Assembly (NCBI GenBank): GCA_041618195.1
Contig: JBFJNL010000001.1
Location: forward strand, 1-50,892
Length of the DNA stretch: 50,892 nt
Reading direction: 5' to 3'
Origin: Thermoplasmatota archaeon
GTDB taxonomy: Archaea; Thermoplasmatota; E2; JACPAO01; JAHFTW01
Shown here: piece after piece, positions 1 through 41,248 of the stretch
How the letters are laid out: every line of letters starts with the position of its first letter
How positions within the stretch are numbered: the first letter of the stretch is position 1
Program-made: the position numbers and the translations under genes
The notes under the pieces: model-generated
The model's input: the letters and a program-made list of their open reading frames with translations, nothing else
The model's database searches: none
Told to the model about the DNA's origin: nothing

Positions 1-706
1 GCACGACGGTACGCTCCAAGCTGGTGTTGAACCAGGCGTCGACGCTGACATGGAAGCCGACATCGTTGACCTGCGGGTCTAGGTGGCCGTCGGTGCCGGC
101 CAGCCTGGCCCCTGCCTCGATGACCCAGATGCCCGAACCGTGGGCGGCGATGGTCGCCGCGTCCTGCAGACTCAGTGTTTCGTCGCCCCCGGCCCCCTGA
201 TCGTCGATGGTGGTGAAGGCGTCGTTCGAGACGGCGTCAACAACGGCCATGGAGAGGTCCGGGCCCAGTGGGCCGACGTCGTCGGGCGATAGGCTGATAC
301 GCAGAGCGCTGGCCCCGCTGGGCACGGTGATCTCGACTTGGGTGGTGTGGGCGCGGTTGACCATCGACGGGTCGGTGTGGTCGAAGGTCAACTTGCCGCG
401 GGTCTCGTTGTGATATGGGGCCTCGCCGCCGATGAACGCCATGCCTGGAGCGGCGCTGATGTCGATCTCGAGTGTCATCTGCGACAGCTCGCCGCGCCAG
501 GTGTTGACGATGCGCGGTTCGAGCAGGGTCTCGGACCCGAAGACCGCGGCACCGGGGTCGACGGCGAACGCCGGTCGCATGGCGGGGTTCCATTTGCCCG
601 GCGCGTGGCAATCCCAGCACCGGGTGGAGCTCGCCTCCTGGTAGCCGCCCTCCTGCGCGGCCGCCAAGCTGGCGATGATCAACAATGCGGCGACGAACAA
701 TCGCAT
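1..706 (-). CDS. Secreted CXXCH (heme c motif) protein, N-terminal 235 codons only (3' end beyond window); paralog of the 761..2287 product
   Basis: Hand-translated open frame from ATG 706 to the window edge (open-ended, so absent from the ORF track). It starts with the signal peptide MRLFVAALLIIASLAAAQ, then TRCWDCHAPGKWNPAM (CXXCH at 605..619). It is collinear with the neighbouring gene (VNTWR and DAWFN blocks). Confidence 0.6.
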   Translation of the reverse strand, partial: MRLFVAALLIIASLAAAQEGGYQEASSTRCWDCHAPGKWNPAMRPAFAVDPGAAVFGSETLLEPRIVNTWRGELSQMTLEIDISAAPGMAFIGGEAPYHNETRGKLTFDHTDPSMVNRAHTTQVEITVPSGASALRISLSPDDVGPLGPDLSMAVVDAVSNDAFTTIDDQGAGGDETLSLQDAATIAAHGSGIWVIEAGARLAGTDGHLDPQVNDVGFHVSVDAWFNTSLERTVV

Positions 707-730
707 GGTCGATACCCCTCTTCGTGACTA

Positions 731-737
731 CTTAAAC
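731..737 (-). promoter_or_regulatory. TATA-like box (GTTTAAG on minus strand) about 28 nt upstream of ATG 706
   Basis: This is the only AT-rich element in the 54-nt spacer. Its spacing matches the other first-gene starts in this window. Confidence 0.3.
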
Positions 738-760
738 AGACAGTCCGGCCCGTCGAATCG

Positions 761-2287
761 TCAACGGCCTTGGCTGGCCGGGGTCAACGGGTCGCTGTAG
801 TTGAGGAACTCCTGGACGAAGCCGAAGTTCTGCCCATCCAGCAGCATGTGCACCACGGTGAACAGGATGGCGGCCAGGCTGAGGGTGAAGTGGGTCCAGC
901 GCCAGGTGGCGTAGTTCCACTTGCGGATCATCGGCACCTGCACAGCGCCGGTGACACCAAGCGCCAGCATGCACAGGATGCCAAGGCCACCCCAGATCAA
1001 CCCCAATTGCCACGGGTAGTTCGGCTCGATGGTGTCCCACACGAAGATGACCATGTGGGCGATGGCGGCGGCGATGATGCCGTAGCTGAGGAAGTTATGG
1101 AACGCGACGCGGCGCCGGGCGCTGCCGAAGATGACGTTCATCTGACGACGGCTGCCCTTGCCGAAGATGCCGCCGGTCCAGACACTGGCGATGAGCAGGA
1201 ACGCCGAGGCGTAACCGACCGCCTCGCTGATGGCGGCCATGCTGACACCGATGACGCCGACGGCGTTGACGATGATGTCCGCCGGCTCCAGCCCCATCTT
1301 CAGTGTCCCATCGGGGAGCTGCATGAAGGGGGCGGTCCGGTTGATGGTCATGTTGTCCCAGTCCTCCTCGGGTGGCGTCGGCGGCTCGTGTTCGTAGTAC
1401 AGCGTCGCGTTGGCGATGACGTTGATGCGCTGCGGGGCGGTCGGTGCGTCAAGGACGATGACGCGCCAGGTGAACACGGCCTTCGTGCCCTTCGCGGTGG
1501 GTCCCGCGGAGGTCTTGACCTGTTGGACTTCCTGGGTCGCGTTGAACCAGGCATCCATGGTGATGGTGAAATCGACGTCGCCGTACTGCGGGTCGAGCTG
1601 GGCGGTGGCCGGATTGGTCGGCGTCAGTTCGATGGGCGTGACTTCGGCCTCGATGGTCCAGTTGCCGAAGCCGTGGCTGGCGACCTTCGATGCGCCGTCG
1701 AGGTGCAGGACTTCGCTGGCGCCCTTGCCGGCTTCATCGATGGTCAACGATGGCGGGGCATCGCTGGCCGTGCGACTGTCAAAGACGCGCATGGTCAGGT
1801 CTGGGCCGCGGTTGGCGTCGTTGTTGGTCGGCGCCATGACCAGCTTGACGGCGGTCGCGCCGACCGGGATGTCCACGAGGACGCCCGCCCGCTGCGGCGT
1901 CGTGAGGAAAGGTTGGGTCGGCTGGTTCGGTACCGCCGCCTCGATGACGATGGTGCCGTCGTAGACGGCGTTGTCCGGGTCTTGGGTGCCCACGAAACGC
2001 AAGGAGGGCGCCTCGGAGATGTCCAAGGTGACGAACATGCCCTGGGTCTCGGCCCGCCATGTGTTGACGAGTTCGGCGCGGTAATCGAACTCCTCGCCGA
2101 CGACGGGGTTGGCCAACAGCGGCAAGACGTCAAACGCCGGCGTCATGGCCGGATTCCATTTGCCGGGCGCGTGGCAGTCCCAGCAACGCGTCTGGTCGTT
2201 AGGCTTGTACTCCGAGCGGTCCTGGGCGCTGACCGTGGCGGCCAGGACAAGGAGAGCGACGACTGACAGGAGGCGCCATGCCTTCAC
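761..2287 (-). CDS. Membrane protein: signal peptide, CXXCH motif, beta-rich ectodomain, C-terminal di-heme-b-like (ferric-reductase-like) 4-TM module
   Basis: Track ORF 761..2584, trimmed to GTG 2287, which gives MKAWRLLSVVALLVLAATVSAQ (alternative GTG 2305). CWDCH lies at 2171..2185. The C-terminal helices FHNFLSYGIIAAAIAH and THFTLSLAAILFTVVH each carry an H-x13-H pair (His codons from 1097..1099 down to 848..850). Confidence 0.65.
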   Translation of the reverse strand: MKAWRLLSVVALLVLAATVSAQDRSEYKPNDQTRCWDCHAPGKWNPAMTPAFDVLPLLANPVVGEEFDYRAELVNTWRAETQGMFVTLDISEAPSLRFVGTQDPDNAVYDGTIVIEAAVPNQPTQPFLTTPQRAGVLVDIPVGATAVKLVMAPTNNDANRGPDLTMRVFDSRTASDAPPSLTIDEAGKGASEVLHLDGASKVASHGFGNWTIEAEVTPIELTPTNPATAQLDPQYGDVDFTITMDAWFNATQEVQQVKTSAGPTAKGTKAVFTWRVIVLDAPTAPQRINVIANATLYYEHEPPTPPEEDWDNMTINRTAPFMQLPDGTLKMGLEPADIIVNAVGVIGVSMAAISEAVGYASAFLLIASVWTGGIFGKGSRRQMNVIFGSARRRVAFHNFLSYGIIAAAIAHMVIFVWDTIEPNYPWQLGLIWGGLGILCMLALGVTGAVQVPMIRKWNYATWRWTHFTLSLAAILFTVVHMLLDGQNFGFVQEFLNYSDPLTPASQGR

Positions 2288-2376
2288 AGGCGACCATGCT
2301 GACACCGGGTTCTTGAATGCTCGGTTCGCATCCTCGAACCCTCGGGGCTTTTCTTCGGGGCCTCGGTCGCCGCTGC

Positions 2377-3063
2377 ATGGACGCTGAATCTCTGAAGCGA
2401 CAGGCTGGCGAGGCGGCCGCCGCCGTCGTCGAGAACGGCATGGTCGTCGGGCTCGGCACGGGCTCCACGGTGAAGTACACCATCCTCGAGCTCGCTCGCC
2501 GGGTCCGCGAGGAAGGACTCGACATGGTCGGCATCCCGACCAGCGACGCGTCAGAGAAGCTGGCCTTGGACGGCGGCATCGCATTGACCACGTTGGATGA
2601 ACATCCGATCATCGACGTCACCATCGACGGTGCCGACGAGATCGATGTCCATTTCCACCTCATCAAAGGCGGCGGCGGTGCCCTGACCCGCGAGAAGATC
2701 GTCGCCCGGGCCAGCAAACGCATGGTCGTGGTGGCCGACGATCGCAAGGAGGTCGAACTCCTCGGCAGCACCTTCGCACTCCCCGTCGAGGTCATCCGCC
2801 TGGGCCTGACGCCCGTGCAGCGGCTTCTTGAGGCCCTCGGCGCCACTGTCACGGTGCGCCAGCAGGGCGGCGGACTCTACCTGACCGACAACGGCAACCC
2901 GATCCTCGACGCCAAGTGGGACCACATCGCCGACCCCGCCGGTCTGGAGCAGACGCTCAACATGTACCCGGGCGTCGTCGAATGCGGTCTGTTCCTAGGC
3001 CTCTGCGACACTGCCTTCATTGCCCGAGCTGATGGCGTTCACATGCGACGCCTTGACGGGTAG
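2377..3063 (+). CDS. rpiA: Ribose-5-phosphate isomerase A
   Basis: Motifs GLGTGST, DGADE and KGGGGALTREKIV. ATG 2377 was chosen inside track ORF 2317..3063. Confidence 0.9.
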   Translation: MDAESLKRQAGEAAAAVVENGMVVGLGTGSTVKYTILELARRVREEGLDMVGIPTSDASEKLALDGGIALTTLDEHPIIDVTIDGADEIDVHFHLIKGGGGALTREKIVARASKRMVVVADDRKEVELLGSTFALPVEVIRLGLTPVQRLLEALGATVTVRQQGGGLYLTDNGNPILDAKWDHIADPAGLEQTLNMYPGVVECGLFLGLCDTAFIARADGVHMRRLDG

Positions 3064-5877: not shown

Positions 5878-5940
5878 TTGAGCGGCACCGCGAGCGCAGC
5901 TTTTTCCCCGTGCTGGGGGTGTGAAGCCTGGACCCGGTCC

Positions 5941-6651: not shown

Positions 6652-6695
6652 GCGCCGGCCCAGGGACCGGGGTCTGCTGGTGGCTGGCTGCTCGA

Positions 6696-19886: not shown

Positions 19887-20047
19887 TCTTCGCCCAGCAA
19901 CTGTTCGCGCAGCAGGTCCTGCAGATTACGGCTGGCGTTCTCCGGTCTGAACGGACAGTAACTGCATTGCTGCGGGGAATCGCAGCACACCTGTAGCCGC
20001 CGGACCTCGTCCCCGGTCTGCGGTGGGCGGCCCAGCCAACGGTTCAA
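19883..20047 (-). CDS. Cys-rich micro-protein A (54 aa from TTG), CC-x5-C-x2-CP-x-RPENA motif
   Basis: Hand-translated: (L)NRWLGRPPQTGDEVRRLQVCCDSPQQCSYCPFRPENASRNLQDLLREQLLGEE. The stop overlaps the ATG of ORF B (ATGA). TTG 20047 is the first possible start in the frame; an alternative is GTG 19990. Confidence 0.4.
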   Translation of the reverse strand: MNRWLGRPPQTGDEVRRLQVCCDSPQQCSYCPFRPENASRNLQDLLREQLLGEE

Positions 20048-20114
20048 GCAACGCCCCCGTAGCCGCGCCCGAGGGCAGCAACCCCGCCCCCTGGAGAGCG
20101 ATTGGCGGCCAGCA

Positions 20115-20522
20115 TCAGTATTCCTTGAGGATCAACCGGCTGGTCGTGGCCTCGGTACCCTCGATGTCGCGGATGCGGTCGATCAAGTCGTTGAGCTTCC
20201 CGGGGTCGTGGCAATCGGCGACGACGACGATGTCATGGTCGCCAGTGACCTCCCAAGCCGCTTCGACGCTCTCCCAGCCAGCGATCTCCTTCGTCACCGT
20301 GCTGGTATTGGTGTTGTTGGTGACGCGGACCTCGATGAGCGCCTTGACGTTGCGCCCGGCTGTGCGGATCGTGAACTTGCGGATGATGCCCTCGTCGGTG
20401 AGCCGCTTGACGCGGGCACGCACGGTGCCTTCGCTGGTCCCGACGGCTTTGGCGAGGGCGGTGAAGGACTCGCGACCATTGTCTCGCAAGAGCAGCATCA
20501 ATTGGCGGTCGACTTCATCCAT
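20115..20522 (-). CDS. Lrp/AsnC family transcriptional regulator
   Basis: 135 aa. MDEVDRQLMLLLRDNGRESFTALAKAVGTSEGTVRARVKRL is the HTH, followed by a C-terminal RAM/ACT-like domain. Confidence 0.9.
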   Translation of the reverse strand: MDEVDRQLMLLLRDNGRESFTALAKAVGTSEGTVRARVKRLTDEGIIRKFTIRTAGRNVKALIEVRVTNNTNTSTVTKEIAGWESVEAAWEVTGDHDIVVVADCHDPGKLNDLIDRIRDIEGTEATTSRLILKEY

Positions 20523-20543
20523 ACACTACGGACTTCGTGGCCA

Positions 20544-20550
20544 GATTTAG
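20544..20550 (-). promoter_or_regulatory. TATA-like element (CTAAATC on minus strand) about 25 nt upstream of the Lrp/AsnC-family regulator ATG
   Basis: AT-rich patch in the divergent spacer, at a leaderless-type spacing. Confidence 0.3.
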
Positions 20551-20657
20551 GGATATCGTGGGGTCTGGGGTCGCTGGCCGTTCCATGCGACGGGCGCACG
20601 ACAGGGGTCGCACCCTGCGACAGAACGCCTTTCTACGCAGCCCACGTCGAACCCGGC

Positions 20658-22136
20658 ATGCGCGCATGGATGTGGATTCCCGTGACGATGATGGCCTTCG
20701 CAGGCTGCCTCAGTGACGACCCGACGACCCCCAACGGCCAACCCGCCGAGTGCGGCCCGACGGCGTTCGAGACCGATGACATCCGCTTCCTCAACACCAC
20801 CGACGACCCCTTCGCCCTGGTCAACGTCACGGCCGACGCCTTCGACTTCCAGACCTACAACCTGCGCACCTGCAGCCTCGCGGCCATCGGTCACACACCC
20901 CTGCGGTTCAACCAAGACGGCACCGGCGCGCCCCACCGTTACATCGGTGAGATCGACATGCGAGGCGACCTGGGGGCCGTGGCGGTCCTCGGCAACGGCG
21001 AGACCCCGACCGTCTACATCCTTGACACCACGGACCGCGCCGCGCCCGTCGTGTTGAGCACCATCGCGCAGGTGGGCACGTACATCACCGACGTCAAGAT
21101 CAGCGACACCGGCCGCTACCTGTTCACCGCCAGCCAAGGCAGCAGCGGTCAAGGCGAACTCGCGGAATTCCCGGAACTCACCGCCAACGCGGGCTTCTCC
21201 GCCTACGACATCTCCAACCCGGCCGCCCCCGTCTACCTGGCGACCTACGACAACAGCCCCGGCGGTTGCCACATGCTCAGCAGCGAGCGCATCGGCGACA
21301 CAGAGGTCGTGGTCTGCATCAGTGACGTCGTGCGAGTCTGGGGCCTTGAAGAAGTGGCGCCCGGGCAACTGGTCCCCCTCGGCTACGTGCCGTACATCCC
21401 CGACGACGGCGTCGGTTGCGCGGTGCCCCTCCCGGTCCCCTGCGTCGGCGTCCAAGGCCCCCACGACGCCACGGTCCAGGTCGACCCCGTCACCGACCAG
21501 CGCTTGATGATCGTCAGCCACTGGGACTCGGGCCTGCGCGTCGTCGACCTCAGTGACGCCCCGCAAGCCACCGAGATCGGCAAGTGGACCGGTGAAGGTG
21601 CGACGCACTACAGCGGCCATGTCCACAGCGCCATGATGGTGTATGCCAACGGCACCCGGTACATCCTCGCCACGCCAGAATACACTGGCAGCGGCGGTGC
21701 CGACACCGTGCCCAGCATCTGGGTCCTCGACGCCACCGATCTGTCGGCGCCCAAGCTCGTCGCCGAATGGTTCCACCCGGGCGGACACCCGTCCCAGGGG
21801 CTGTTCCTGACGACGCACCAATGGCAGGTCGCCCCCAGCGGCCCCGAGGTGGCCATCGATGATGTGCGCATCTACCTCACCATGAACCACGCGGGTCTGT
21901 GGGTGCTGAGCCTTGCCGACATCCTCAATGGCGACAACCTCGGTGCCATCGAAGGCTTCCATCTGGGTCGCACGCCGCTCGACCCCGAGACGGCGGTCGG
22001 TAACGCCATCCTGAGCACCTGGGACGTCAACGTCGTCGACGGCTACATCTACGGCAGCGACCGCGCCACCGGCCTCTGGGTCTTCCACTATGAAGGCGAC
22101 GCCCTCGGGGACACGACCCGCACCGGCTTCGCCTGA
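20658..22136 (+). CDS. Secreted lipoprotein with LVIVD-type beta-propeller repeats
   Basis: MRAWMWIPVTMMAFAGC lipobox. Repeats occur such as LFTASQG, LMIVSHWDSGLRVVDL, IYLTMNHAGLWVL and YIYGSDRATGLWVF. ATG 20658 lies inside track ORF 20208..22136. Confidence 0.75.
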   Translation: MRAWMWIPVTMMAFAGCLSDDPTTPNGQPAECGPTAFETDDIRFLNTTDDPFALVNVTADAFDFQTYNLRTCSLAAIGHTPLRFNQDGTGAPHRYIGEIDMRGDLGAVAVLGNGETPTVYILDTTDRAAPVVLSTIAQVGTYITDVKISDTGRYLFTASQGSSGQGELAEFPELTANAGFSAYDISNPAAPVYLATYDNSPGGCHMLSSERIGDTEVVVCISDVVRVWGLEEVAPGQLVPLGYVPYIPDDGVGCAVPLPVPCVGVQGPHDATVQVDPVTDQRLMIVSHWDSGLRVVDLSDAPQATEIGKWTGEGATHYSGHVHSAMMVYANGTRYILATPEYTGSGGADTVPSIWVLDATDLSAPKLVAEWFHPGGHPSQGLFLTTHQWQVAPSGPEVAIDDVRIYLTMNHAGLWVLSLADILNGDNLGAIEGFHLGRTPLDPETAVGNAILSTWDVNVVDGYIYGSDRATGLWVFHYEGDALGDTTRTGFA

Positions 22137-22223
22137 TCCCGTCGCTATCACAGCCTACGCTCTCCTGATAATCCCGGTATCTGACGGCTGAGGGTGGGGA
22201 AAACCCCGACAATGCGCCGGCCG

Positions 22224-22228
22224 TTATA
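22224..22228 (+). promoter_or_regulatory. TATA-like box (GTTATAGT) about 27 nt upstream of ATG 22253
   Basis: Supports ATG 22253 (MSRIAAIVVLLLL signal peptide) as a leaderless start rather than GTG 22229. Confidence 0.35.
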
Positions 22229-22252
22229 GTGCATCAGGGCGCATGTCCGAGT

Positions 22253-24256
22253 ATGTCTCGCATCGCGGCCATCGTCGTCCTACTCTTGCTTCCCCTAGCC
22301 GGAGCAACGCATCCCGAACCATCACCCCCGCAAGGCAGCGTCTGGACTGTCTACACGACCGTCGATGCCGAGATCATCGACAACTACGCCACGGTCTCCA
22401 TCATTGCCGACATCGGCAACCGCGGACCCGACCCGGAATTCCCGTTCCAAGTGCGCGTCCCCGCTGATGCCTACGTGATTGGATTCTCCATTGAACGAGA
22501 CGGCACATTGTGGGAAGGTCGCATCGAAGACCGCGACAAGGCCCGACAAGAATACGACGAGCAGAAGGCCAACGAGAACACCGCAGGCCTCATCGAGAAG
22601 AAGCGCGGCACGCAGATCTACGCCTTCTTGGTCAACGTCGCCGAGTTCGAATCCGTGCGCGCCATCCTGACCTACGAAGTCTACCTGAGCGCCGACCAGG
22701 ACGTCTACAGCCTCGGCCTCGAAGCGCCGGTCAGCGGCTTCGGCGAAGACCTCGGTGCACGTTTTGACGTACGCGTCTGCCACGAGGCCGGCGTCACCAG
22801 TCTCACCACCGACCCGCCAGCGTCCGCCAAACACGTCGACGGCTGCCGCAGCGCTTCGCACAGCGTCGGCCCCCGCCACAACGAACAAGCCACGCCATTC
22901 TCGCTGCACTACGCCATCCCGCCGACCGCCGAGGAAGGCAACCTGCAAGCTGTCGTGGTCGACGGCGTCGGATACTTCGCCCATCCGTTCAGGGCCCCTG
23001 CGAACGCAGCGCAACTGCCCCTCGATCTTGTGCTCGTTCTCGACACCAGCGGCTCCATGGGCGCCGAACACAAACTGGCCCAGATGCAGGACGCCGCCAC
23101 GCAGGTGATCGGCATGCTCGACGAGGCCGACCGATTGGCCATTGTGGAATTCAACAGCGGCACATTCACCTCGATGGGTTCTCTGGAAGCCGCCGGCGGG
23201 GACCGCGTCGCGGCAGGTCGCCGGCTGGTCCAGGAGTTCTTCGCAGGCGGCTCGACCAACATCGAAGCCGGCCTGCGAGACGGCTTCGGGGCCTACGACG
23301 GCACCTCTGCCTGCGATTCGCTCACCTCGGCCGTCACGCCCTGCCTCGAGCCTCGCAGTCGCATCCTGGTCTTCCTCACCGACGGCCAAGCCACAGTCGG
23401 CATCACTGGCCGCGACGCGCTACGCACCATGGCCCTCGACGAGAACCCCGGCGACGTCCGATTGTTCGCGCTCGCCTTCGGCACCGGCGCCGACTACCGC
23501 CTCGTCTCGGGCCTCGCCAAAGACAACGGTGGCTCGGCGTTGCTGGTCCCCCAAGGCGACGGAGCCGAAGTCGACCTGCGTCGATTCATGGCCGCCCTCG
23601 CCACGCCGGTGCTGGAGAATGTCGTCATCGACTACGACGGCGAAGTCCAAGCCTTCCGCAACAGCGCGCCCGTCCTGTTCCAAGGCAGCGAACTGCTGGT
23701 CGTCGGCACCTTCGACGCCTCCATGAAACGCATCACCGGCACCGTCACCGGCGACGCCGCCAACGGTCCGCAGACCTACACGTTCGACCAAGCCGTCGGG
23801 CCGGGCAACAGCAAGCTGCCGCGCATCGTCGCCTACGCCCAGATCCAACACTACCAGGGCCTCATCGACGCCGAAGGGGAACAAGCAGCCTGGGTCGCCG
23901 CCATCAAGGAGATCGCCCTCGAGTGGGGCTTCGTGACCGAGTACACCAGCCTCGTCATCAGCACCGCGCTCGATGACCCTGTCCGCACCTTCGACCCCGA
24001 AAGCCGCCACGAGGGCGCGGCCGATGGCGCCTCCGGTGGCGCGACCAGCACCGGCACCTCGACGTCCTCCCACACTGGCTCGCAGGCCCCGTCGACGACC
24101 GGCGGACAGGCCAACGACAGCGACAGCACCCCGGGCGGTCAGCCCCCTGCCGAGAAAAGCGAGCCGGAGGATGGCGCCAACACCCCCGGACTCGGCCTGC
24201 CGCTGGCTCTCGCCGCCCTGGCCGCCGTGGCCGTGGCCCTGCGCCGGCGCCGCTAG
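22253..24256 (+). CDS. Surface protein: VIT domain + von Willebrand factor A domain + Ser/Thr-rich linker + PGF-CTERM-like anchor
   Basis: Has a signal peptide and the vWA MIDAS motif LVLDTSGSM. The C-terminus is ...TSTSSHTGSQAPSTTGG...ANTPGLGLPLALAALAAVAVALRRRR. Confidence 0.85.
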   Translation: MSRIAAIVVLLLLPLAGATHPEPSPPQGSVWTVYTTVDAEIIDNYATVSIIADIGNRGPDPEFPFQVRVPADAYVIGFSIERDGTLWEGRIEDRDKARQEYDEQKANENTAGLIEKKRGTQIYAFLVNVAEFESVRAILTYEVYLSADQDVYSLGLEAPVSGFGEDLGARFDVRVCHEAGVTSLTTDPPASAKHVDGCRSASHSVGPRHNEQATPFSLHYAIPPTAEEGNLQAVVVDGVGYFAHPFRAPANAAQLPLDLVLVLDTSGSMGAEHKLAQMQDAATQVIGMLDEADRLAIVEFNSGTFTSMGSLEAAGGDRVAAGRRLVQEFFAGGSTNIEAGLRDGFGAYDGTSACDSLTSAVTPCLEPRSRILVFLTDGQATVGITGRDALRTMALDENPGDVRLFALAFGTGADYRLVSGLAKDNGGSALLVPQGDGAEVDLRRFMAALATPVLENVVIDYDGEVQAFRNSAPVLFQGSELLVVGTFDASMKRITGTVTGDAANGPQTYTFDQAVGPGNSKLPRIVAYAQIQHYQGLIDAEGEQAAWVAAIKEIALEWGFVTEYTSLVISTALDDPVRTFDPESRHEGAADGASGGATSTGTSTSSHTGSQAPSTTGGQANDSDSTPGGQPPAEKSEPEDGANTPGLGLPLALAALAAVAVALRRRR

Positions 24257-29559: not shown

Positions 29560-29634
29560 GATGGCATCGAAGCCGCGCCATGGGAATACTCATAAGGGGG
29601 CCGGGATTGGGCCGTTTTGACCTGGGGTTTATAT

Positions 29635-30009
29635 ATGGTCTCCGTGGCGTTAGAATATCTTCCCCTGGCCATCCTTGGGGTGGTCGCTTTCCTATTGGTC
29701 TTCGTTACTCTCCTGGGTAACAAGTTCATGGGCCCAAAGCGTGCAAGCGTCACAAAACTGACGCCCTACGAGTGCGGCGAGAAACAATCTCCCGGCGCTC
29801 GCGGCCCTATCGATGTCCAGTATTACATGTACATCCTGACCTTCCTCATCTTCGATGTTGAAGTGATGTTCCTGATCCCGTTCGCGCTCCGCTTCAAGGA
29901 GCTCTCGGCCGGGCCGATCATCGCTGTCACCGTCTTCGTTGGGTTGATCCTGGTCGGCTACGCCTACGAGCTGCGTAAGAAGCTGCTCACCTGGAGGACC
30001 ATCGCTTGA
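29635..30009 (+). CDS. nuoA: NADH-quinone oxidoreductase-like complex subunit A
   Basis: LEYLPLAIL...LTPYECGE motif with 3 TM helices. ATG 29635 lies inside track ORF 29617..30009. Confidence 0.9.
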
Positions 30010-30587
30010 GCGAAGAACCCGCGGCGCAACCCGCCGCCCCCGCAGACATCGAGGCTTACGATCCCGCCACGGACGCGCCTACGACCATGAAGATCCCCAT
30101 CGTCGTGGAAGAGCAGAAGGACGGCCTCGTGCTGACCGTGCTCTCCAAGGCCATCAACTGGGGCCGCAGCAACTCGCTCTGGCCTTTCGGTTTCGGACTC
30201 GCTTGCTGCGCCATCGAGATGATCTCGACCGTCGCCAGCCCCAACCATGACATGAGCCGCTTCGGCAGTGAAGTCATGCGCGCCAGTCCCCGCCAGTGCG
30301 ACTTGATGATCGTGCCCGGCACCGTCACGAAGAAGATGGCGCCCCGCATCAAGAACCTGTACGAGCAGATGGCCGAGCCCAAGTACGTCATCGCCATGGG
30401 TGCCTGCGCCATCAACGGCGGCCCGTACCAGGAATCCTACTACGTCGTCAAGGGCGTGGACAAGATCATCCCGGTCGACGTCTACGTGCCTGGCTGCCCG
30501 CCGCGCCCCGAGGCCCTCCTCGACGGCCTGCAGAAGCTGCAGCAGAAGATCCGCGACCAGAACCACACCCTGGAGCTTGGTTTCTGA
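30006..30587 (+). CDS. nuoB: Complex I subunit B (N2 Fe-S subunit)
   Basis: [26 protein letters not shown] and GCPPRPEA motifs. The TTG 30006 start overlaps the nuoA stop; an alternative start is ATG 30087. Confidence 0.9.
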
Positions 30588-31141
30588 TGGCTGAAGAAGT
30601 CACCATCCAACCCGCCGGCGACCACGCCAAACTCGCCGCCAAGCTCGGCGAAGGCGCCGTCGGCATCGGTGTCCTGGCAGACGGCCAGCAGATCACCGAC
30701 GTCGCGCCCGACGCCATCTTCCAGGCCGCCACCGTGGCCAAGAAGCTCGGCTACCCGCTGCTGTCCTGCCTGTCGGCCTACGACGGCAAGACCGAGCTCG
30801 GCGTGTTCTACAGCTTCATCAAGCTCGCCCAGACGCCGGCCGAGTTCGGCGAACTGTGCATGCGTGTCCGCCTGCCCCGCCCCGACGGCGCCGGCAAGGA
30901 ATGGATTCCCGAGGTCCAGAGCCTCTGCGACCTCATGCCTGCCGCCAACTGGCAAGAACGCGAGATGTACGACCTGTTCGGCATCCGCTTCGACGGCCAC
31001 CCGGACATGCGTCGCATCTTCCTGCCCGAAGACTGGATCGGCTTCCCGGGTCGCAAAGACTACTCCGAAGCCGAACAGTTCGTGGCGATGCGCGACGGTG
31101 AAGACATCACTCTCCAAACTCAGGAGGAAGGCTCATGGTAG
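30587..31141 (+). CDS. nuoC: Complex I subunit C (30 kDa)
   Basis: ANWQEREMYDLFGIRFDGHPDMRRIF motif. The ATG overlaps the nuoB stop (TGATG). Confidence 0.9.
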   Translation: MAEEVTIQPAGDHAKLAAKLGEGAVGIGVLADGQQITDVAPDAIFQAATVAKKLGYPLLSCLSAYDGKTELGVFYSFIKLAQTPAEFGELCMRVRLPRPDGAGKEWIPEVQSLCDLMPAANWQEREMYDLFGIRFDGHPDMRRIFLPEDWIGFPGRKDYSEAEQFVAMRDGEDITLQTQEEGSW

Positions 31142-32346
31142 ACCGCGCCGACATCCTTGCCAGCCTGCCGCCCGCTTACGACGGCAGCGCCTCGATCAGC
31201 CCGATCGCCGGCAGCAAGCACCTGATGAAGCTCAACATGGGCCCCCAGCACCCGTCCACCCACGGTGTGTTGCGCCTCAAGCTGACCCTCGATGGCGAGA
31301 TCGTCCACGACGTCGAACCCGTCATCGGCTACCTGCACCGCGGCTCAGAGAAGCTCGCGGAGAACATGAACTGGGTCAAGTTCATCCCCCTCACCGACCG
31401 CATGGACTACCTTGCGGCCATGCTCAACAACCACGGCTACGTCCTGGCTGTCGAGAAACTCCTCGGTGGCCCCGAAGAGCAGCTTGTCTCCGAGCGCGCC
31501 GAATACCTGCGTGTCTTCTCCAGTGAGATGAGCCGCCTGGCCAGCCACTTGTTGTGGATGGGGACGTTCATCATGGATCTGGGCGCCATCACGCCCATCT
31601 TCTACGCCCTGCGCGAGCGCGAGACCATCCTCAACTTCCTTGAGGAACTGTGCGGCGCCCGCCTGACCTTCAACTACATGCGATTTGGCGGCGTCAAATA
31701 CGACCTGCCCGAGGACCCCACATACCTGGACCGTGTCGAGGAGTTCATCTCCAGCATGCCAGCCCAGGTCATGGAGTACCAGCGCCTGCTGAAGAAGAAC
31801 GACATCCTGGTCGCCCGCCTGAACGGCACCGGCCCGCTGAGCCGCGAGGACGCCCTCGCTTACGGCGTCACCGGCCCCATGCTGCGCGCCACCGGCGTCG
31901 CGCACGACCTGCGCAAGGTCGCGCCGTACAGCGTCTACGACCGCCTCAACTTCGAGGTGCCCACCAACACCCAGAGCGACTGCTACGGTCGCCTGCAACT
32001 GCGGTGGCAAGAAATGATCCAGACGTGCCGCATCCTCGAGCAGGTCATCGACAAGCTGCGCGATGGCAACCTCGACGGTCTGCACATCAACCCCGCCTAC
32101 GCGGGCGGCAAGATGCTCCGCATCAAGGCCAAGGGCGAAGCCTACGCCCGCATCGAACACAGCAAGGGTGAGTACGGCGTCCACGTCATCGGCGACGGCA
32201 AACTCCAACCCAGCCGTGTCCACGTGCGCGCCCCGAGCTTCGCCAACCTGCAAGTCCTGCCGCTCATGGCGCGCGGACAGAAGATCGCGGACCTCGTCGC
32301 CACGTTGGGGTCCATTGACATCGTCCTAGGGGACGTGGACCGTTAG
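31135..32346 (+). CDS. nuoD: Complex I subunit D (49 kDa)
   Basis: MGPQHPSTHGVLRL, GYLHRGSEK and C-terminal IVLGDVDR. AGGAGG Shine-Dalgarno motif upstream. Confidence 0.95.
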   Translation: MVDRADILASLPPAYDGSASISPIAGSKHLMKLNMGPQHPSTHGVLRLKLTLDGEIVHDVEPVIGYLHRGSEKLAENMNWVKFIPLTDRMDYLAAMLNNHGYVLAVEKLLGGPEEQLVSERAEYLRVFSSEMSRLASHLLWMGTFIMDLGAITPIFYALRERETILNFLEELCGARLTFNYMRFGGVKYDLPEDPTYLDRVEEFISSMPAQVMEYQRLLKKNDILVARLNGTGPLSREDALAYGVTGPMLRATGVAHDLRKVAPYSVYDRLNFEVPTNTQSDCYGRLQLRWQEMIQTCRILEQVIDKLRDGNLDGLHINPAYAGGKMLRIKAKGEAYARIEHSKGEYGVHVIGDGKLQPSRVHVRAPSFANLQVLPLMARGQKIADLVATLGSIDIVLGDVDR

Positions 32347-32358
32347 GGAGGCCTGACT

Positions 32359-33399
32359 ATGGGAGCACTCATCGACCTCATCGACAGCACGATTCCGGGA
32401 ACGCCGCACTGGCTCGACCTGACCATCGCTTCCATCATCGGCAGCGTCCTGGTCTTCACGGTCGTCCTGGCCACTGGTGGCATCTTCACGTTCACGTTCC
32501 GCCGCATCTTCGCCCGCATGGGCACCCGCCGTGGACCGAACCGTGTCGGCCCCAGCGGCATCTTCCAGTTCTTGGCAGACGGTATCAAACTGATCTCCAA
32601 GGAAGACATCCGTCCCGCCAAAGTGGACAAGATCGCGTGGGGGGCGGCCGTCTACGTCGCCGTCATCTTCACCGTCATCGCCTGGAGCCCCATGCCTTGG
32701 GGCAAGGGCTTGTTCTTCACGAACATCAGCACCGGCATCCTGTTCATCCTCGCCGCCAGCGCCATCGCGCCCCTGGCTGAGATGATGGCCGGCTGGGGCA
32801 GCAACAACAAGTACAGCCTGTACGGCGGCATCCGCGCCGCTGCCATGGACGTCTCGTACGAGATCCCCATGCTGTTCGCCATCGGTAGCATCATCCTGAT
32901 GACCGGCACGCTCAGCACGCAGGGCATCGTCGAAGCCCAGCACGCTGTCTGGTTCATCGTGCCGCAGATCGTCGGCTTCGTGATCTTCTTCATCACTGCA
33001 TTGGCGAAGGCCGGTCTGGCACCCACTGACCTGGCCGAATCCGAATCGGAACTCGTCGCCGGCTTCACCACCGAATACTCCGGCATGCGTTTCGGCATGT
33101 TCTTCGTGGTGCTGTTCAGCAACGTGTTCTTCATCAGCGCACTCATGACGATGCTCTACCTCGGTGGATGGCAAGCGCCCTTCATCGACTACATCCCGGC
33201 CCTCGCCGTGATCCCGGGCGTTTTCTGGTTCGCCGCCAAGTCCCTTCTTCTTAGCTTCGTGGTCTTCTGGGTGTGGACCTCGATCCCTCGTGTGCGTGTC
33301 GACACTTACCTCGGCGCGGCCTGGAAAGTCATGCTTCCCGTGTCCCTTTTGAATTTCGTCGGAACTGCGATCGCTGTCAAGATGGGGGTCCTCGGATGA
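32359..33399 (+). CDS. nuoH: Complex I subunit H
   Basis: [19 protein letters not shown] and [18 protein letters not shown] motifs. GGGAGG Shine-Dalgarno motif upstream. Confidence 0.95.
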
Positions 33400-33461
33400 T
33401 TCTCAGCGAAGCGCTCGGAGCCGTCTCCAGCATGAAACCCGTCAAGGAGATCGTCCAATGA
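33396..33461 (+). other. 21-codon bridging mini-ORF between nuoH and nuoI (ATGA overlap at both ends)
   Basis: It encodes [21 protein letters not shown]. Its ATG 33396 overlaps the nuoH TGA (33397..33399). Its TGA (33459..33461) overlaps the nuoI ATG (33458). Confidence 0.25.
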
Positions 33462-33886
33462 CAACGCCTCTCGTCCCCATCCTGCAAGGCATGGGCGTCA
33501 CGCTACAGAACTTCTTCAAGAAGCCGGTGACGGTGCAATACCCCGAAGAGAAGCGCCCGGTCTCCGACCGCTTCCGCGGCCGCATCTACCTCAAACTGGA
33601 GACCTGCATCGGCTGCACCTTGTGCGCCCAGGCATGCCCCAACGGCTCGTGCTACATGGTCGATTACGACCCTGGCTTCGAGACGCCGCAGAACAAGCGC
33701 CACAAGTTCCCGGCCGTCGAGATCAGCAAGTGCATGTACTGCTCGCTGTGCGAAGAGGCCTGCCCGACGGACAGCATCCGCATGGGCAAGGAATACGAGA
33801 CCGGCGCGTACGTGCGCGACTTCGACTACAAGCCTGACCGCTTGAGCCAGAATGAAGCCGCTCTTGGACGGGGGCCGTACAAGTGA
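33458..33886 (+). CDS. nuoI: Complex I subunit I (2x[4Fe-4S])
   Basis: [12 protein letters not shown] and [12 protein letters not shown] motifs. Confidence 0.95.
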
Positions 33887-34536
33887 TCGGAGAACAGATC
33901 TTCTTCGTCATCGTGTCCGCGACGGTGCTTGGCGGCGGCCTATGGGCCGCCTTCGCCAAGCGCACCTTCCACGCGGCGCTCGGGCTCGGCATCACCCTCA
34001 TCGGCGTCGCCGGCATCTACATTCTCCTGAACGCCCCGCTGATCGGCATCCTCCAGGTGCTCGTCTACGTGGGCGGCATCCTGACCATCCTCGTCTTCGC
34101 CGTCATGTTCGTCGCCGGCGACGAAGAGGAAGAGAAGTTACCCAGCCGCGAGCGCGTCTGGGCACGCCGGGTCGGCATCGCTGTCCCCATCGTCCTCTTC
34201 TCGGCGCTCGCCGCCGCCGTCCTCGCTGCCGAACCCTGGGGGCTTGACCCCGTGGGCGGTGCCGAAGATATCGACGCCATCGCCACCGACCTGTTCCGCG
34301 AACACGTGGTCGCCTTCGAAGTGCTCGGTATCCTGCTGACCGCCGCCATGATCGGTTCCCTGGTCATCGCCCGGCCACTGGTCGCCGGCATGGACCGGGA
34401 CGTCTACCCGACGGCCGACAAGGCGGGCCTCGCCAAGAGCCAGGCCAGCAGCGAGCTCGGGGCGTTGTTCCCGCTCCAATCGATGGATCGCAGCCTCGCT
34501 GAACACGAAGACACGTTTGGAGGTGAGGAAGAATGA
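33883..34536 (+). CDS. nuoJ: Complex I subunit J
   Basis: [22 protein letters not shown] motif. GTG 33883 overlaps the nuoI stop. Confidence 0.9.
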
Positions 34537-34835
34537 TCCCGACCACCTGGGCCGTCATGCTCAGCGCCGCTCTGCTGGTCGTCGGTGTCCTGGGCATCAT
34601 GCTCAACCGCAGCGCCCTGCGCATCCTCATCAGCATCGAGCTGGTGCTGAACGCCTCGAACATCAACTTCGTCGCCTTCGCACAACACTGGGGTCAGAGC
34701 GATGGCCTCACCTACACTCTCTTCAGCATCGCATTGGCCGCAGCGGAAGCCGCGGTCGGCCTCGCGATCCTGATCCACCTGTACCGACACATGCAGACCG
34801 TGGACGCAGACGCCGCCACGGCCCTGAGGTGGTAA
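34533..34835 (+). CDS. nuoK: Complex I subunit K
   Basis: 100 aa, 3 TM helices, SIELVLNASNINFVAF motif. ATGA overlap with nuoJ. Confidence 0.9.
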   Translation: MIPTTWAVMLSAALLVVGVLGIMLNRSALRILISIELVLNASNINFVAFAQHWGQSDGLTYTLFSIALAAAEAAVGLAILIHLYRHMQTVDADAATALRW

Positions 34836-34836
34836 C

Positions 34837-36858
34837 ATGGCTGAACTCCACGCATCGGAACTCCTGGCTGCAAGCAGCATCGAACTCACGGCCGCCATGG
34901 TCGTGCTCCTCGCCCCCATCCTCGCCAGCCTGGCGGTCTTCCTGTACGGCAAGACCCACTGGCGCGGCGGCGCGGCCACAGTCGTCACGGCGGTCGGCTT
35001 CAGCGTCGTCGCGATGCTGTACCTGTTCTACCAACACGTCATCATGGGTGCAGACCCGACGGGCTGGTCGATCACTTGGTTCAGCGTCGGCGAATACCAC
35101 TTCGAGTTCGGTTTCCTACTCGACAACCTGAGTATCTGGCTGGCCACGCTGGTCAGCATCCTGTCGTTCCTCATCGTCGTCTTCTCGACGCACTACATGC
35201 ACGAGGAGCCCAACGGCAAACTGCGCCGCTACTACGCGGTCAAGGCGCTGTTCATCGGTGGCATGCTGGGCACCGTCCTCATGGACAACTACCTCCTGAT
35301 GTTCGTCTTCTGGGAGATTATGGGTCTGTGCAGCTACCTGCTCATCGGCTACTGGTTCCACAAGGACTCCGCCGCCATCGCGGCCAAGAAGGCGTTCTTG
35401 ACGACGCGCCTTGGAGACATCCTGCTCATGGTCGGCATCATCATCCTGTTGGTGACCTTCAAGACCGTGAGCTACCGCGAACTGTTCCACCACCCCGAAC
35501 TCGAACAGCACAAGGCCATCGTGTATGCTGCCTCGCTGTTGATCTTCGGCGGTGCCGTCGGTAAGTCTGCCCAGTTCCCCCTCGACCTGTGGTTGCCCGA
35601 CGCCATGGAAGGCCCCACCACGGTCTCCGCATTGATCCACGCCGCGACGATGGTCAAGGCCGGTGTCTTCCTGGTCGCCCGCAGCTTCCCGCTGTTCTTG
35701 CTCAACCCTGATACCTTCATCCTTGTCGGTATCATCGGTGGCATCACGGCGCTCTACGCCGCCAGCATGGCACTCGTGGCGATGGACATCAAGAAGGTCC
35801 TCGCCTTCTCGACGCTGAGTCAACTCGGCTACATGTTCCTCGCACTCGGTGCCGGCGGCGTCTACTACGCCAGCACTTTGGCGGAGGGCCATCCTGACGG
35901 CATCGGCTTCACCGCCGCCATGCTGCACCTGCAGAACCACGCATTCTTCAAGGCGCTCTTGTTCCTTGGAAGCGCCAGCGTCATCCTCGGGATGCACCAC
36001 CATCAGGACATGCGCGACATGGGTGGCCTTCGCAAGAAGATGCCCAAGACGTACTGGACCATGATGGTCGGTACGCTCGCCATCGCGGGCATCATCCCCT
36101 TCAGTGGCTTCTGGAGCAAGGATGAGGTGCTCGCCACCGCGTTCAAGGCCGGTAGCATCGAACCCGTGTTCACCATCCTGTGGCTCATGGGCATGCTGAC
36201 CGCGCTCATGACGGCATTCTACATGTTCCGCATGATGTTCCTGACCTTCCACTCGGAACCCCGCACGGAACACGCTGATCACGCCCACGAAAGCCCCGGC
36301 GTCATGACCGGCCCGCTCGTCGTGCTGGCGGTGTTCGCCGCCCTGGCCGGTCTGTGGCTCGTCGTGCCCCTCGCCGGTGGCTTCGAGAACGTCATCACGT
36401 ACCCGTACAGCCACGACCTGGGCGCGCACCACGCGCTGGCCCCCAGTGAGATCCTCATGGGCATCTTGCTGAACCCGCTGACCTACGCGTCTCTGGGCCT
36501 GGCAGTCCTCGGTATCATCCTGGCACGCAAGTACACCAAGGGTGTCCCGGCCAATGAGGTCGAGACCCCCACCAGTGGCGTGCGCGGCTTGCTGTACAAC
36601 CGCTACTACGTGACACAGGCGATCTACGAACCCATCGGGAACGTCTTCGCCCTCGGCATCGCCAAGCTCAGCAACCTCTTCGACCGCAAAGGTATCGACG
36701 GCGTCGTCAACGCGACGGCCCGAGGCGCCCAGGCTGAAGGCGCGTTCCTGCGCAAATGGCAAGATGGTCGCATCACGACCTACCTCAGTAGCATCGCCAT
36801 CGGGGCCACGGTCCTGTTGGCGCTCGCGATCGCTCTCCTTCCCCTCATCCGGTGGTGA
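34837..36858 (+). CDS. nuoL: Complex I subunit L (antiporter-like)
   Basis: FWEIMGLCSYLLIGYWF and GKSAQFPLDLWLPDAMEGPTTVSALIHAATMV motifs. Confidence 0.95.
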   Translation: MAELHASELLAASSIELTAAMVVLLAPILASLAVFLYGKTHWRGGAATVVTAVGFSVVAMLYLFYQHVIMGADPTGWSITWFSVGEYHFEFGFLLDNLSIWLATLVSILSFLIVVFSTHYMHEEPNGKLRRYYAVKALFIGGMLGTVLMDNYLLMFVFWEIMGLCSYLLIGYWFHKDSAAIAAKKAFLTTRLGDILLMVGIIILLVTFKTVSYRELFHHPELEQHKAIVYAASLLIFGGAVGKSAQFPLDLWLPDAMEGPTTVSALIHAATMVKAGVFLVARSFPLFLLNPDTFILVGIIGGITALYAASMALVAMDIKKVLAFSTLSQLGYMFLALGAGGVYYASTLAEGHPDGIGFTAAMLHLQNHAFFKALLFLGSASVILGMHHHQDMRDMGGLRKKMPKTYWTMMVGTLAIAGIIPFSGFWSKDEVLATAFKAGSIEPVFTILWLMGMLTALMTAFYMFRMMFLTFHSEPRTEHADHAHESPGVMTGPLVVLAVFAALAGLWLVVPLAGGFENVITYPYSHDLGAHHALAPSEILMGILLNPLTYASLGLAVLGIILARKYTKGVPANEVETPTSGVRGLLYNRYYVTQAIYEPIGNVFALGIAKLSNLFDRKGIDGVVNATARGAQAEGAFLRKWQDGRITTYLSSIAIGATVLLALAIALLPLIRW

Positions 36859-40683: not shown

Positions 40684-41223
40684 ATGGAATGGGACGCGAC
40701 GCGCGAGGCACCCGGCACGCAGAGCTCGGGCGGGCTCCCCCGATATCGCGACCTGGTCGTCACCCTCTTGCTGGCGATCTTCACGTTCGGCGTGTACACC
40801 CTGTACTGGTTGTACGTCACCTACAGGGACACCCACCAACACCTTGGCCGCGCGCACCAAGCGAAGACCGCCCTGGTGCTGGCTATCATCGGCTACGTCC
40901 TGATGTGGTTCGTCATGGCGCTGTACCTGGTCTTTACCCTCGGGTTCGCAGCCACCCAACGGGAGCCCTCCGTGGCCTTGTTCAGCGGCATGATCGGCAT
41001 GTTCGCGGTCCTGCTCATCGCTTCACTCGCTGTCACCGCCGTGCAGGTATGGATGATGTGGGGTGCTGCGCGGGGTGCCGAACTGGTGCTGCAGCGCTAC
41101 GGCCGCACCCCCACCATGCCGCCCCTCGTCCATGCGCTCGTGCCCATCGTGCTGAACCTCTGGGTCTACGTCGCCATCGGGCTGGTCCAGAGCGACCTCA
41201 ACAAGCTGCACCCACAGTCCTGA
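40684..41223 (+). CDS. DUF4234-like membrane protein
   Basis: RDLVVTLLLAIFTFGVYTLYWLYVTYRD is the DUF4234 signature. ATG 40684; an alternative start is 40639. Confidence 0.65.
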   Translation: MEWDATREAPGTQSSGGLPRYRDLVVTLLLAIFTFGVYTLYWLYVTYRDTHQHLGRAHQAKTALVLAIIGYVLMWFVMALYLVFTLGFAATQREPSVALFSGMIGMFAVLLIASLAVTAVQVWMMWGAARGAELVLQRYGRTPTMPPLVHALVPIVLNLWVYVAIGLVQSDLNKLHPQS

Positions 41224-41248
41224 TGTAGGGCCCCGGGGTCGCAATGGT

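Follow-up and report, generated by a model that had tools for sequence, protein, structure and literature searches.

Two tandem paralogous genes at the start of the window

We analyzed a 50,892-nt stretch of genomic DNA from a Thermoplasmatota archaeon (positions 1 to 50,892 of contig JBFJNL010000001.1, assembly GCA_041618195.1; GC content ~65%), hereafter called the window, which is archaeal by its gene content and by the labels on its homologs. Its first 2,287 nt carry two consecutive genes on the minus strand, here named A and B, whose products are probably paralogous single-polypeptide transmembrane electron conduits. Gene A (761..2287) is complete: it starts with GTG at 2287, ends with a TGA stop codon at 761..763 and comprises 508 codons plus the stop, encoding a 508-aa precursor identical to database protein P0001. 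Of gene B, the window holds the 5′ part (1..706), an open frame of 235 codons that starts at an ATG and is truncated by the window edge. The two genes are separated by a 54-nt spacer (707..760) that carries TTTAAG at 731..736, located 25-30 nt upstream (−30 to −25) of the gene B ATG. Judged by its sequence and position, this element is a plausible candidate for the archaeal TATA box of a leaderless mRNA.

A and B showed 40% identity over 247 columns (E = 1e-50). In each, a Sec-type signal peptide at the N-terminus precedes the identical block TRCWDCHAPGKWNPAM, and the VNTWR and DAWFN blocks are found in both. The first-pass annotation, made from the letters alone, had described two consecutive minus-strand paralogs with a shared N-terminal layout, and this description was borne out. 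Its coordinates for the CXXCH codons (2171..2185 in A and 605..619 in B) and for the membrane His codons (from 1099 down to 848) were also exact when checked by reading frame. The 3′ end of gene B, which is missing from the window, was recovered from database protein P0025 (474 aa; encoded on a 2.3-kb public assembly contig), which is 100% identical to the B fragment over all of its 235 residues. P0025 has the same architecture as A, namely C30-x-x-C33-H34, an ectodomain YEH motif with H277, and two H-x13-H helices with H368/H382 in HNFLSYGIIAAAIGH and H434/H448 in HFGVAIAAVVFTVIH. Because P0025 continues the B fragment into this A-like architecture, the sequence indicates that B is a complete, slightly shorter paralog and not a remnant.

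The B ortholog of a syntenic relative (L001:6637-8109) is publicly annotated as 431 aa with a start at 6817, and this gene call lacks both the signal peptide and the CXXCH motif; the true open reading frame (ORF) starts near 6688, beginning MRIIVVALLGLAALAAAQESGYQEASSTVCWDCH / MRIIVVALLGLAALAAAQ... As this call starts too late, automated annotation masks the motif in some family members. Around genes A and B themselves, several competing reading frames were rejected. The extension of the gene A ORF over 2288..2584 is Arg/Pro-rich and was found in none of the homologs, and it was regarded as an artefact of the 65% GC content. The long overlapping and antisense ORFs on both strands of 1..2852, including a 498-aa plus-strand ORF opposite gene A (770..2266) and a minus-strand ORF at 2199..2852, were likewise judged to be GC by-products, with a third-position GC content above 0.8 and without the codon-position GC pattern of real genes.

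The C-terminal membrane module belongs to the ferric reductase domain superfamily

The AlphaFold2 model of A (mean pLDDT 85.5) consists of a signal helix, a short helix with C35-H39, ~18 strands at residues 50-330 and four long helices; with a pTM of only 0.51, it is uncertain how the domains are placed relative to each other. The four helices correspond to predicted transmembrane (TM) helices, all encoded on the minus strand: TM1 (1172..1240, residues 350-372), with the invariant E355 at its outer end, TM2 (1040..1120, residues 390-416), TM3 (944..1009, residues 427-448), and TM4 (836..913, residues 459-484). They are followed by a C-terminal tail (764..835) with a conserved LDGxNF...DPL motif, in which D484, G485, F488, Q492, and P500 are invariant or nearly so. 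TM2 (FHNFLSYGIIAAAIAH) and TM4 (THFTLSLAAILFTVVH) each carry two His residues 13 residues apart, in agreement with the first-pass annotation: H397 (1097..1099) and H411 (1055..1057) in TM2, and H466 (890..892) and H480 (848..850) in TM4. The pair in TM2 is preceded by the invariant R392-R393 and that in TM4 by a conserved W-R-W motif, both on the predicted cytoplasmic side. In ferric reductase domain (FRD) proteins and in cytochrome b, two b hemes are each bis-His-ligated by H-x13-H pairs located on two alternate helices (PMC3591440; PMC5566968).

Residues 387-476 of A, which include TM2, matched Pfam family PF01794 (Ferric_reduct) from profile position 26 of 121 onward; the score of 34.9 bits (E = 1.8e-8) exceeds the gathering cut-off of 28. 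A precomputed PF01794 match was also present in most of the 103 homologs that were retrieved by a word-indexed search, and some paralogs fell under the cut-off, for example the B ortholog in L001 (25.4 bits) and the first copy in L002 (20.9 bits). No competing two-heme family was found for gene A in Pfam at E <= 1, and neither Ni_hydr_CYTB nor Cytochrom_B was the Pfam assignment of the membrane module. The C-terminal helices thus belong to a heme family, as had been proposed at first reading.

The TM1-TM2 loop (GKGSRRQMNVIFGSARRR) and the TM3-TM4 loop (IRKWNYATWRW) are basic, in contrast to the acidic TM2-TM3 loop, C-terminal tail, and ectodomain. Helix prediction, hydropathy, and the positive-inside rule together predict an out-in-out-in-out topology, in which the Arg/Lys-rich loops would be cytoplasmic; these loops between TM1/TM2 and TM3/TM4 would therefore place the ectodomain and the tail outside. 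TM2 and TM4 would both run from the inside to the outside, so that H397 and H466 would lie on the inner side and H411 and H480 on the outer side, an arrangement of the kind described for the inner and outer hemes of NOX-type FRD proteins (PMC3591440).

However, the module has four predicted TM helices after the ectodomain, as opposed to six in the canonical FRD, where the heme His residues lie on TM3 and TM5. An FRD structure was also not retrieved by sequence or fold searches of the PDB, and the C-terminal 162 aa matched STEAP2 only at E = 1.6. In view of this four-helix, truncated core, the sequence places the module as a variant within the FRD superfamily and not as a canonical member. A membrane wire of two b hemes is well supported by these results, and the heme occupancy of A and B is predicted from sequence.

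A CXXCH motif and an invariant His in the beta-rich ectodomain

The Sec-type signal peptide of A (2225..2287, residues 1-21; hydrophobic segment 1-24) ends in AATVSA/QD, where the slash marks the predicted cleavage site. It is followed by a beta-rich, predicted extracytoplasmic domain (1241..2224, residues 22-349) with 43 Asp plus Glu versus 21 Lys plus Arg residues and five N-x-S/T sequons. The CXXCH motif (C35-W-D-C38-H39, 2171..2185), a candidate site for heme c attachment or metal binding, lies near the start of this domain. At the amino acid composition of gene A, CXXCH would be expected by chance in 0.0003 cases per protein; actually, it occurs in both paralogs and in almost all full-length homologs. 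A further invariant ectodomain His is H300 (1388..1390) in a YYEH motif, which is the obvious candidate for a second, distal axial ligand.

Across the family, the CXXCH motif lies 13-17 residues past the AxA/Q cleavage site. Export by the twin-arginine pathway would argue against a c-type heme; this route was rejected, as the signal peptides have short n-regions and the Sec-like AxA/Q pattern, with Arg-Arg in only 62 of 187.

The fold of the ectodomain resembled nothing in the databases searched. Residues 22-349 matched no Pfam family (DOMON, EB_dh, PPC, and cupredoxin were considered), and the only trace in NCBIfam was choice_anch_V at E = 0.05-0.11, far under the cut-off. The family profile found nothing significant in the PDB, the best match being a phage decoration protein at E = 0.066. 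Foldseek searches of the PDB with the full-length model and with an ectodomain-only model (pLDDT 86) returned only hemolysin, leukocidin, and adhesin beta proteins, with TM-scores <= 0.25 and root-mean-square deviations of ~30 Å; none of these matches allowed a fold to be assigned. Generic beta-rich matches to toxins and adhesins at very low TM-scores, together with several glycosylation sequons, would suit a non-redox surface domain with an adhesive or structural role, in which CxxC forms a disulfide and the membrane cytochrome b serves an unrelated purpose. We regard this as very improbable. A structural disulfide needs neither an invariant His after its second Cys nor an invariant distant His, and it would not survive the clade-wide replacement of Cys by His described below. 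Furthermore, the ectodomain and the heme module were always fused, both in the profile search and in the alignment.

A small, conserved family in Thermoplasmatota

The 103 homologs are 440-550 aa long unless truncated and are labelled only as 'hypothetical' or 'ferric reductase-like transmembrane domain-containing protein', apart from one that carries the JGI label 'thiosulfate reductase cytochrome b subunit'. They come mostly from metagenome-assembled genomes (MAGs) of Thermoplasmatota. A profile search of 1.84 billion representative proteins gave 222 matches at E <= 1e-3 and 100 at 1e-30, so the family is small. A scan of GTDB with one genome per species yielded 37 loci, all in MAGs of Thermoplasmatota, a few of which are labelled 'Halobacteriales' or 'bacterium'. 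The source samples were sand, soil, groundwater, and similar materials, and several MAGs contained two separate loci.

Conservation was assessed at three levels. Across 40 aligned homologs (34-84% identity), C35, C38, H39, H300, E355, R392, R393, H397, H411, H466, and H480 are among the invariant positions. Among 40 related loci, none of the 48-50 full-length family ORFs lacked the CXXCH motif, H300, or any of the four TM His residues. In a profile alignment of 227 collected proteins, many of them fragments, 145 showed CxxCH, H300, and all four TM His residues, and most of the others were fragments. The four TM His residues were found in every profile-aligned sequence that spans both helices, save two with Asn at one position. 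The conservation of the CXXCH and of the four His residues, on which the first-pass annotation had staked its proposal, was therefore borne out.

Distant relatives (400-445 aa; weak profile matches, E ~1e-38 to 1e-11), which often match in the membrane module only and have different ectodomains, keep a CXXCH, typically CEECH, at residues 24-55 together with the two H-x13-H helices. Another distant relative, P0185 (L047:8001-12125), is a giant protein of 1374 aa that ends in the CXXCH-ectodomain-4TM module. Its N-terminal part shows weak CARDB matches and a membrane segment of its own, and its 1008-aa upstream neighbor has a faint CARDB match.

The genes can form tandem arrays of two to four copies; besides the window, such arrays were seen at 9 of 38 non-redundant related loci and at the locus represented by L045 and L046. 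In a rough neighbor-joining tree, the A-type and B-type copies of the window clade formed sister clades, and the first and second copies linked to a multicopper oxidase (see below) clustered by position, indicating at least two old tandem duplications that have been kept. The kept duplicates would be compatible with sub-functionalization or with hetero-oligomers, yet one copy per locus suffices in many genomes. In L025:1769-6384, three or four tandem copies lie upstream of the oxidase, and one of them is split (4863-5237 and 5041-6384), suggesting a frameshift or an assembly error.

The combination of domains had not been recognized as a described family in the first-pass annotation, and we came to the same view: the homologs bear generic annotation only, and a survey of the FRD superfamily reported no fusion to a cytochrome c (PMC3591440). 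The proteins form a real, conserved, and uncharacterized family within this superfamily. The invariant H300, the CXXHH clade, and the neighboring multicopper oxidase, the latter two described in the following sections, are additions to what was first noted.

Nature of the ectodomain centre

The third redox centre, in the ectodomain, is likely a c-type heme, as judged from the sequence. The motif C-x-x-C-H is a specific signature of heme c attachment; it is present in its exact form family-wide, just past a Sec signal peptide, and the invariant H300 is available as the distal ligand. The first-pass annotation had suggested a c heme wired to a di-heme b membrane wire within one polypeptide. The membrane part of this suggestion stands on the PF01794 match and the four invariant His residues; the covalent c heme keeps the weaker status given here.

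A number of observations speak against heme c. One is a clade of 17-20 representatives with less than 50% mutual identity (P0134, P0152, and P0163 among them), in which C-x-x-H-H replaces CXXCH while H300 and the four TM His residues are intact. In locus L045, both tandem copies are of this type (CFEHH); the near-identical pairs L045:3882-6957 and L046:5706-8781 are flanked by Nop-fibrillarin-epimerase on one side and by RpiA-RpoL-TruD on the other. A replacement of Cys by His under purifying selection is typical of a metal ligand and unusual for thioether attachment. Furthermore, the window and ~600 kb of related loci yielded neither a cytochrome c maturation (Ccm) gene nor a CcmC/CcmF-type WWD motif in regular-expression searches of six-frame ORFs and in Pfam scans of the 39 window ORFs, although each genome was sampled at 1-2%, so this is absence of evidence only. 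No other coding-frame ORF with CXXCH was found in the same sequences. Ccm genes of Thermoplasmatota were found neither by a full-text literature search nor in the supplements of PMC9038741. A survey of archaeal cytochromes c detected them in five orders and, in addition, listed two proteins from one Thermoplasmatales single-cell genome, and Ccm was not reported for Thermoplasmatota (PMC4429474). At complex III, soil Thermoplasmata were described as using plastocyanin-like proteins 'and no cytochrome c' (PMC9038741).

The same observations favor another possibility, which we consider clearly less likely than heme c: the membrane wire would be the same, but C-x-x-C/H-H and H300 would bind a metal ion, most plausibly copper, in place of heme c. 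Such a protein could act as a cupric or ferric reductase like Fre1 or STEAP, or as a copper-thiolate relay or loader for an adjacent multicopper oxidase. Exchanging the second Cys for His, as seen even in both copies of a tandem pair, is a mild change at a metal site but not at a thioether linkage, and the phylum relies on blue copper proteins, with cytochromes c not known there (PMC9038741; PMC4429474). The lack of a Ccm motif and of any other CXXCH ORF in the sampled loci agrees with such a site, and the conserved neighbor is a copper enzyme. Eukaryotic FRD proteins such as Fre1 and STEAP reduce Cu(II) and Fe(III). Nevertheless, the exact C-x-x-C-H is kept in about 88% of the members and in very distant relatives, adjacent residues such as C38 and H39 seldom ligate one metal ion together, and the ectodomain model is not cupredoxin-like. 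In addition, no metal permease of the Ftr1/EfeU type adjoined the family genes in the neighborhoods examined.

A type-C two-domain multicopper oxidase is the conserved neighbor

The gene neighborhoods of the related loci were then compared. A type-C two-domain multicopper oxidase (MCO; 430-455 aa) was encoded immediately downstream on the same strand in 20 of the 32 loci with enough downstream sequence; 18 of these came from a scripted count, and L033 and L041, where the oxidase ORF overlaps the conduit ORF, were added. This adjacency holds although the conduit proteins are only 35-45% identical. The oxidases have a signal peptide, a lipobox-like LGGC at the N-terminus, and the Pfam domains Cu-oxidase_3, Cu-oxidase_2, and Cu-oxidase. 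Their best PDB matches were type-C two-domain MCOs, namely 3G5W of Nitrosomonas europaea (6.6e-56) and 2ZWN (mgLAC; 1.2e-48). Domain 1 contains WYHCHVDxxHH (H-C-H) and HxxHxHG, domain 2 contains HxxHxHGH, and a ~120-aa insertion lies between both cupredoxin domains in all conduit-adjacent oxidases. They fall into two groups: one has GxWxxHDH as in 3G5W (L031:11477-12886 and L015:4503-5801), and the other, about half, has GLWMxHDQ (L002:11669-13033 and L006:11568-12926), which is expected to lose one type 3 (T3) His ligand of the trinuclear centre.

Two genomic settings were recognized. In type I, the order is Nop56/58 - fibrillarin - epimerase - one to four conduit genes - MCO. In type II, to which the window belongs, Csl4 - TrmB-like - RpiA (opposite strand) is followed by one or two conduit genes and PEPCK. 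L045 and L046 join the flanks of both types, which suggests that the two settings derive from one ancestral locus by vertical inheritance.

The adjacency has limits as evidence for a functional link. It lies within a broadly conserved syntenic block (Nop-fibrillarin-epimerase), and the association may partly reflect inheritance over function. Pfam scans detected no MCO among the window ORFs, and the RpiA/PEPCK locus lacks the oxidase. The loci without an MCO have only housekeeping or unannotated genes around the conduit, with no alternative redox neighbor. The neighborhoods examined also contained no ApbE or FMN_bind gene near the family genes. A cytoplasmic electron donor was not identified. 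In type I loci, a short-chain dehydrogenase/reductase (SDR)/epimerase gene lies upstream of the conduit gene, often with a 4-bp overlap; it was rejected as a cytoplasmic NAD(P)H donor, since it resembles an ordinary sugar-nucleotide epimerase in the Nop-fibrillarin synteny.

Proposed electron transfer pathway

Based on these features, we propose that the four-helix C-terminal bundle is a minimal FRD-type (NOX/FRE-like) cytochrome b with two stacked b hemes, where H397 and H466 would ligate the inner heme and H411 and H480 the outer heme. In the ectodomain, C35-x-x-C38-H39 and H300 would form the third redox centre, most likely a bis-His c-type heme. Electrons would enter at the cytoplasmic face and cross the membrane via the two b hemes. 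The donor may be quinol or a soluble reductase that binds at the invariant Arg/Trp-rich loops; the near-invariance of these cytoplasmic basic and aromatic loops suggests a docking or quinone site. From the outer b heme, electrons would pass to the ectodomain centre and then to an extracytoplasmic acceptor, which in most related loci is probably the type 1 (T1) copper of the downstream MCO, and thence to O2. The conduit and the oxidase together would thus use the reducing power of the cell to reduce O2, or a metal, on the outside. Outward flow would be thermodynamically natural because low-potential bis-His hemes would feed a high-potential copper centre, and it is what all characterized FRD proteins do (PMC3591440; PMC8238504).

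The opposite direction was also considered. The protein might be a quinone-reactive cytochrome b of an inward redox loop, in which extracellular oxidation of Fe(II), Mn(II), or another substrate would send electrons via the ectodomain centre and the b hemes to quinone at the cytoplasmic face, conserving energy like formate dehydrogenase-N. The four-helix two-heme layout is like that of quinone-reactive cytochromes b, with which the JGI label on one homolog is in keeping, and FRD-like inner-membrane proteins with two HX13H motifs in gene clusters of Fe(II) oxidizers were proposed to be quinone-active (PMC5566968). The origin of many MAGs from sand, soil, and groundwater, and the presence of complex I and hence presumably of quinones, would also suit such a loop. 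However, the neighbor is itself an oxidase feeding O2, and by redox chemistry its high-potential T1 copper should be unable to reduce low-potential hemes. The Pfam assignment is Ferric_reduct, not Ni_hydr_CYTB or Cytochrom_B, and no quinone-site motif was identified in the protein. We therefore consider the inward loop unlikely.

At its widest, the outward pathway could describe a conduit of three centres passed on by vertical descent, in which two b hemes are joined by an ectodomain heme bound covalently or in some unusual way, and which together with the type-C MCO constitutes a new cell-surface respiratory branch reducing O2 or metals in Thermoplasmatota, a phylum thought to rely on blue copper without cytochromes c. 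This wider proposal is doubtful at present. If the three-centre conduit is real, it would imply either undetected Ccm genes or a new mode of heme attachment, for example a single-Cys or His-linked heme in the CXXHH clade.

Other genes of the window

A complex I (Nuo-type) operon is encoded on the plus strand at 29596..39983, probably extending to ~42496, with Pfam matches to Oxidored_q4 (NuoA), Oxidored_q6 (NuoB), Complex1_49kDa (NuoD), NADHdh (NuoH), and three times Proton_antipo_M (NuoL, M, and N). The complex I subunits indicate that a quinone-linked membrane chain exists in this organism. The ORF at the operon end (41156..42496, 447 aa) had no Pfam match. Upstream of the operon, a 724-aa plus-strand ORF with a strong coding signal and no Pfam match (19962..22133) is followed by a gene for a 694-aa protein with VIT and VWA domains (22172..24253, plus strand).

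Implications

If the proposed pathway holds, the family would provide the first candidate c-type cytochrome that is widespread in Thermoplasmatota and the first transmembrane wire of the FRD/NOX type to which a heme c (or metal) ectodomain is fused. Abundant uncultured archaea of soil, sand, and groundwater would then have a defined electron route from the cell interior to a surface copper oxidase, O2, or metals, with bearing on archaeal respiration, metal cycling, and copper and iron acquisition. The four-helix, four-His core would be a minimal FRD and is relevant to the origin of NOX/FRE proteins from cytochrome b. The presence of Ccm in the genomes that bear the family becomes a sharp question for archaeal heme c biogenesis. 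The FRD survey listed four archaeal members, all ascribed to horizontal gene transfer (PMC3591440); the A/B family, by comparison, is widespread in Thermoplasmatota MAGs and contradicts the earlier view that archaeal FRD genes arose by sporadic transfer only.

Comparison with known systems

The proteins were finally compared with known electron transfer systems. Like the FRD superfamily (NOX, FRE/FRO, bFRE, MsrQ/YedZ, and STEAP), A has a PF01794 match above the cut-off, and its four His residues form an H-x13-H pair on each of two parallel helices, in the manner of the four-His NOX/FRE members (PMC3591440); A and B are also proposed to move electrons across the membrane from the cytoplasm to an acceptor outside. 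In contrast, A and B have four TM helices and not six, and unlike the long form of NOX/FRE, A has no FAD/NAD(P)H dehydrogenase domain, as it ends 24 residues past TM4 and has no FAD/NAD Pfam domain. In the YedZ/MsrQ-STEAP branch, the first His is replaced by Arg, giving a single-heme type (PMC3591440), whereas H397 is invariant here; since the first His is kept, the A/B family is of the four-His and not of the YedZ/STEAP type. The ~330-aa N-terminal CXXCH ectodomain is likewise absent from the superfamily survey, which listed six modular extensions and never mentioned cytochrome c (PMC3591440).

With respect to the oxidase, the closest relative is NcgA (3G5W) of N. europaea, a type-C two-domain MCO clustered with c-type cytochromes in ncgABC-nirK (PMC3603346), and the related loci similarly place such an oxidase beside candidate c-type cytochromes. 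NcgB and NcgC, however, are soluble class-I cytochromes without a membrane b module, NirK is present there and not here, and the archaeal oxidases differ from NcgA by the interdomain insertion and, in half of them, by HDQ for HDH. Yeast reductive iron uptake pairs Fre1, an FRD reductase, with the multicopper ferroxidase Fet3. This resembles the present pairing of an FRD-type transmembrane reductase with an extracellular MCO; the differences are that no Ftr1-like permease lies nearby and that the oxidase here has two domains, whereas Fet3 has three.

Regarding the ectodomain, a parallel is offered by cytochrome f, a c-type cytochrome rich in beta structure whose CXXCH lies close to the mature N-terminus and whose membrane anchor is C-terminal; A similarly has a mostly beta extracytoplasmic domain, CXXCH soon after the cleavage site, and a C-terminal membrane anchor. 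In cytochrome f, however, the anchor is a single TM helix and the sixth ligand is the N-terminal amino group, and it was not retrieved by Foldseek. Eukaryotic cytochrome b561-DOMON proteins (CYBDOM) combine a two-heme membrane module with an extracellular beta-sandwich heme domain into a three-heme chain; unlike these, the module here is an FRD and not a b561, and the ectodomain has no DOMON match in Pfam or Foldseek.

Among fused c/b cytochromes, the closest appears to be Geobacter CbcL, which reportedly joins a nine-heme c domain to a b domain of the HydC/FdnI type (PF01292) in this bacterium. An extracytoplasmic c-type heme domain and a two-heme b membrane domain in one polypeptide with outward electron flow would be common to both. 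CbcL belongs to a different b family and is not homologous: in A and B, the b domain is of the FRD type, and the ectodomain is beta-rich with only one CXXCH. PF01292 (HydC/FdnI/PhsC type) gave no match in A even at E <= 1, and the His residues are distributed two plus two on TM2 and TM4 as opposed to TM1, TM2, and TM4.

FRD-like membrane proteins with two HX13H motifs have also been noted beside periplasmic cytochromes in Fe(II) oxidizers (PMC5566968). In its logic, the closest prokaryotic analogue is the MsrQ-like module (PF01794) that operates with extracytosolic flavinylated FMN-binding domains and for which assimilatory metal reduction is among the proposed roles (PMC8238504; Méheust et al. 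2021). There, the cofactor on the outside is FMN, which is attached by ApbE and in many cases carried by another protein, whereas here it would be a CXXCH-plus-His centre fused to the module in an archaeal protein; in both, an FRD module would serve as a plug-in wire for a cofactor domain outside the cell.

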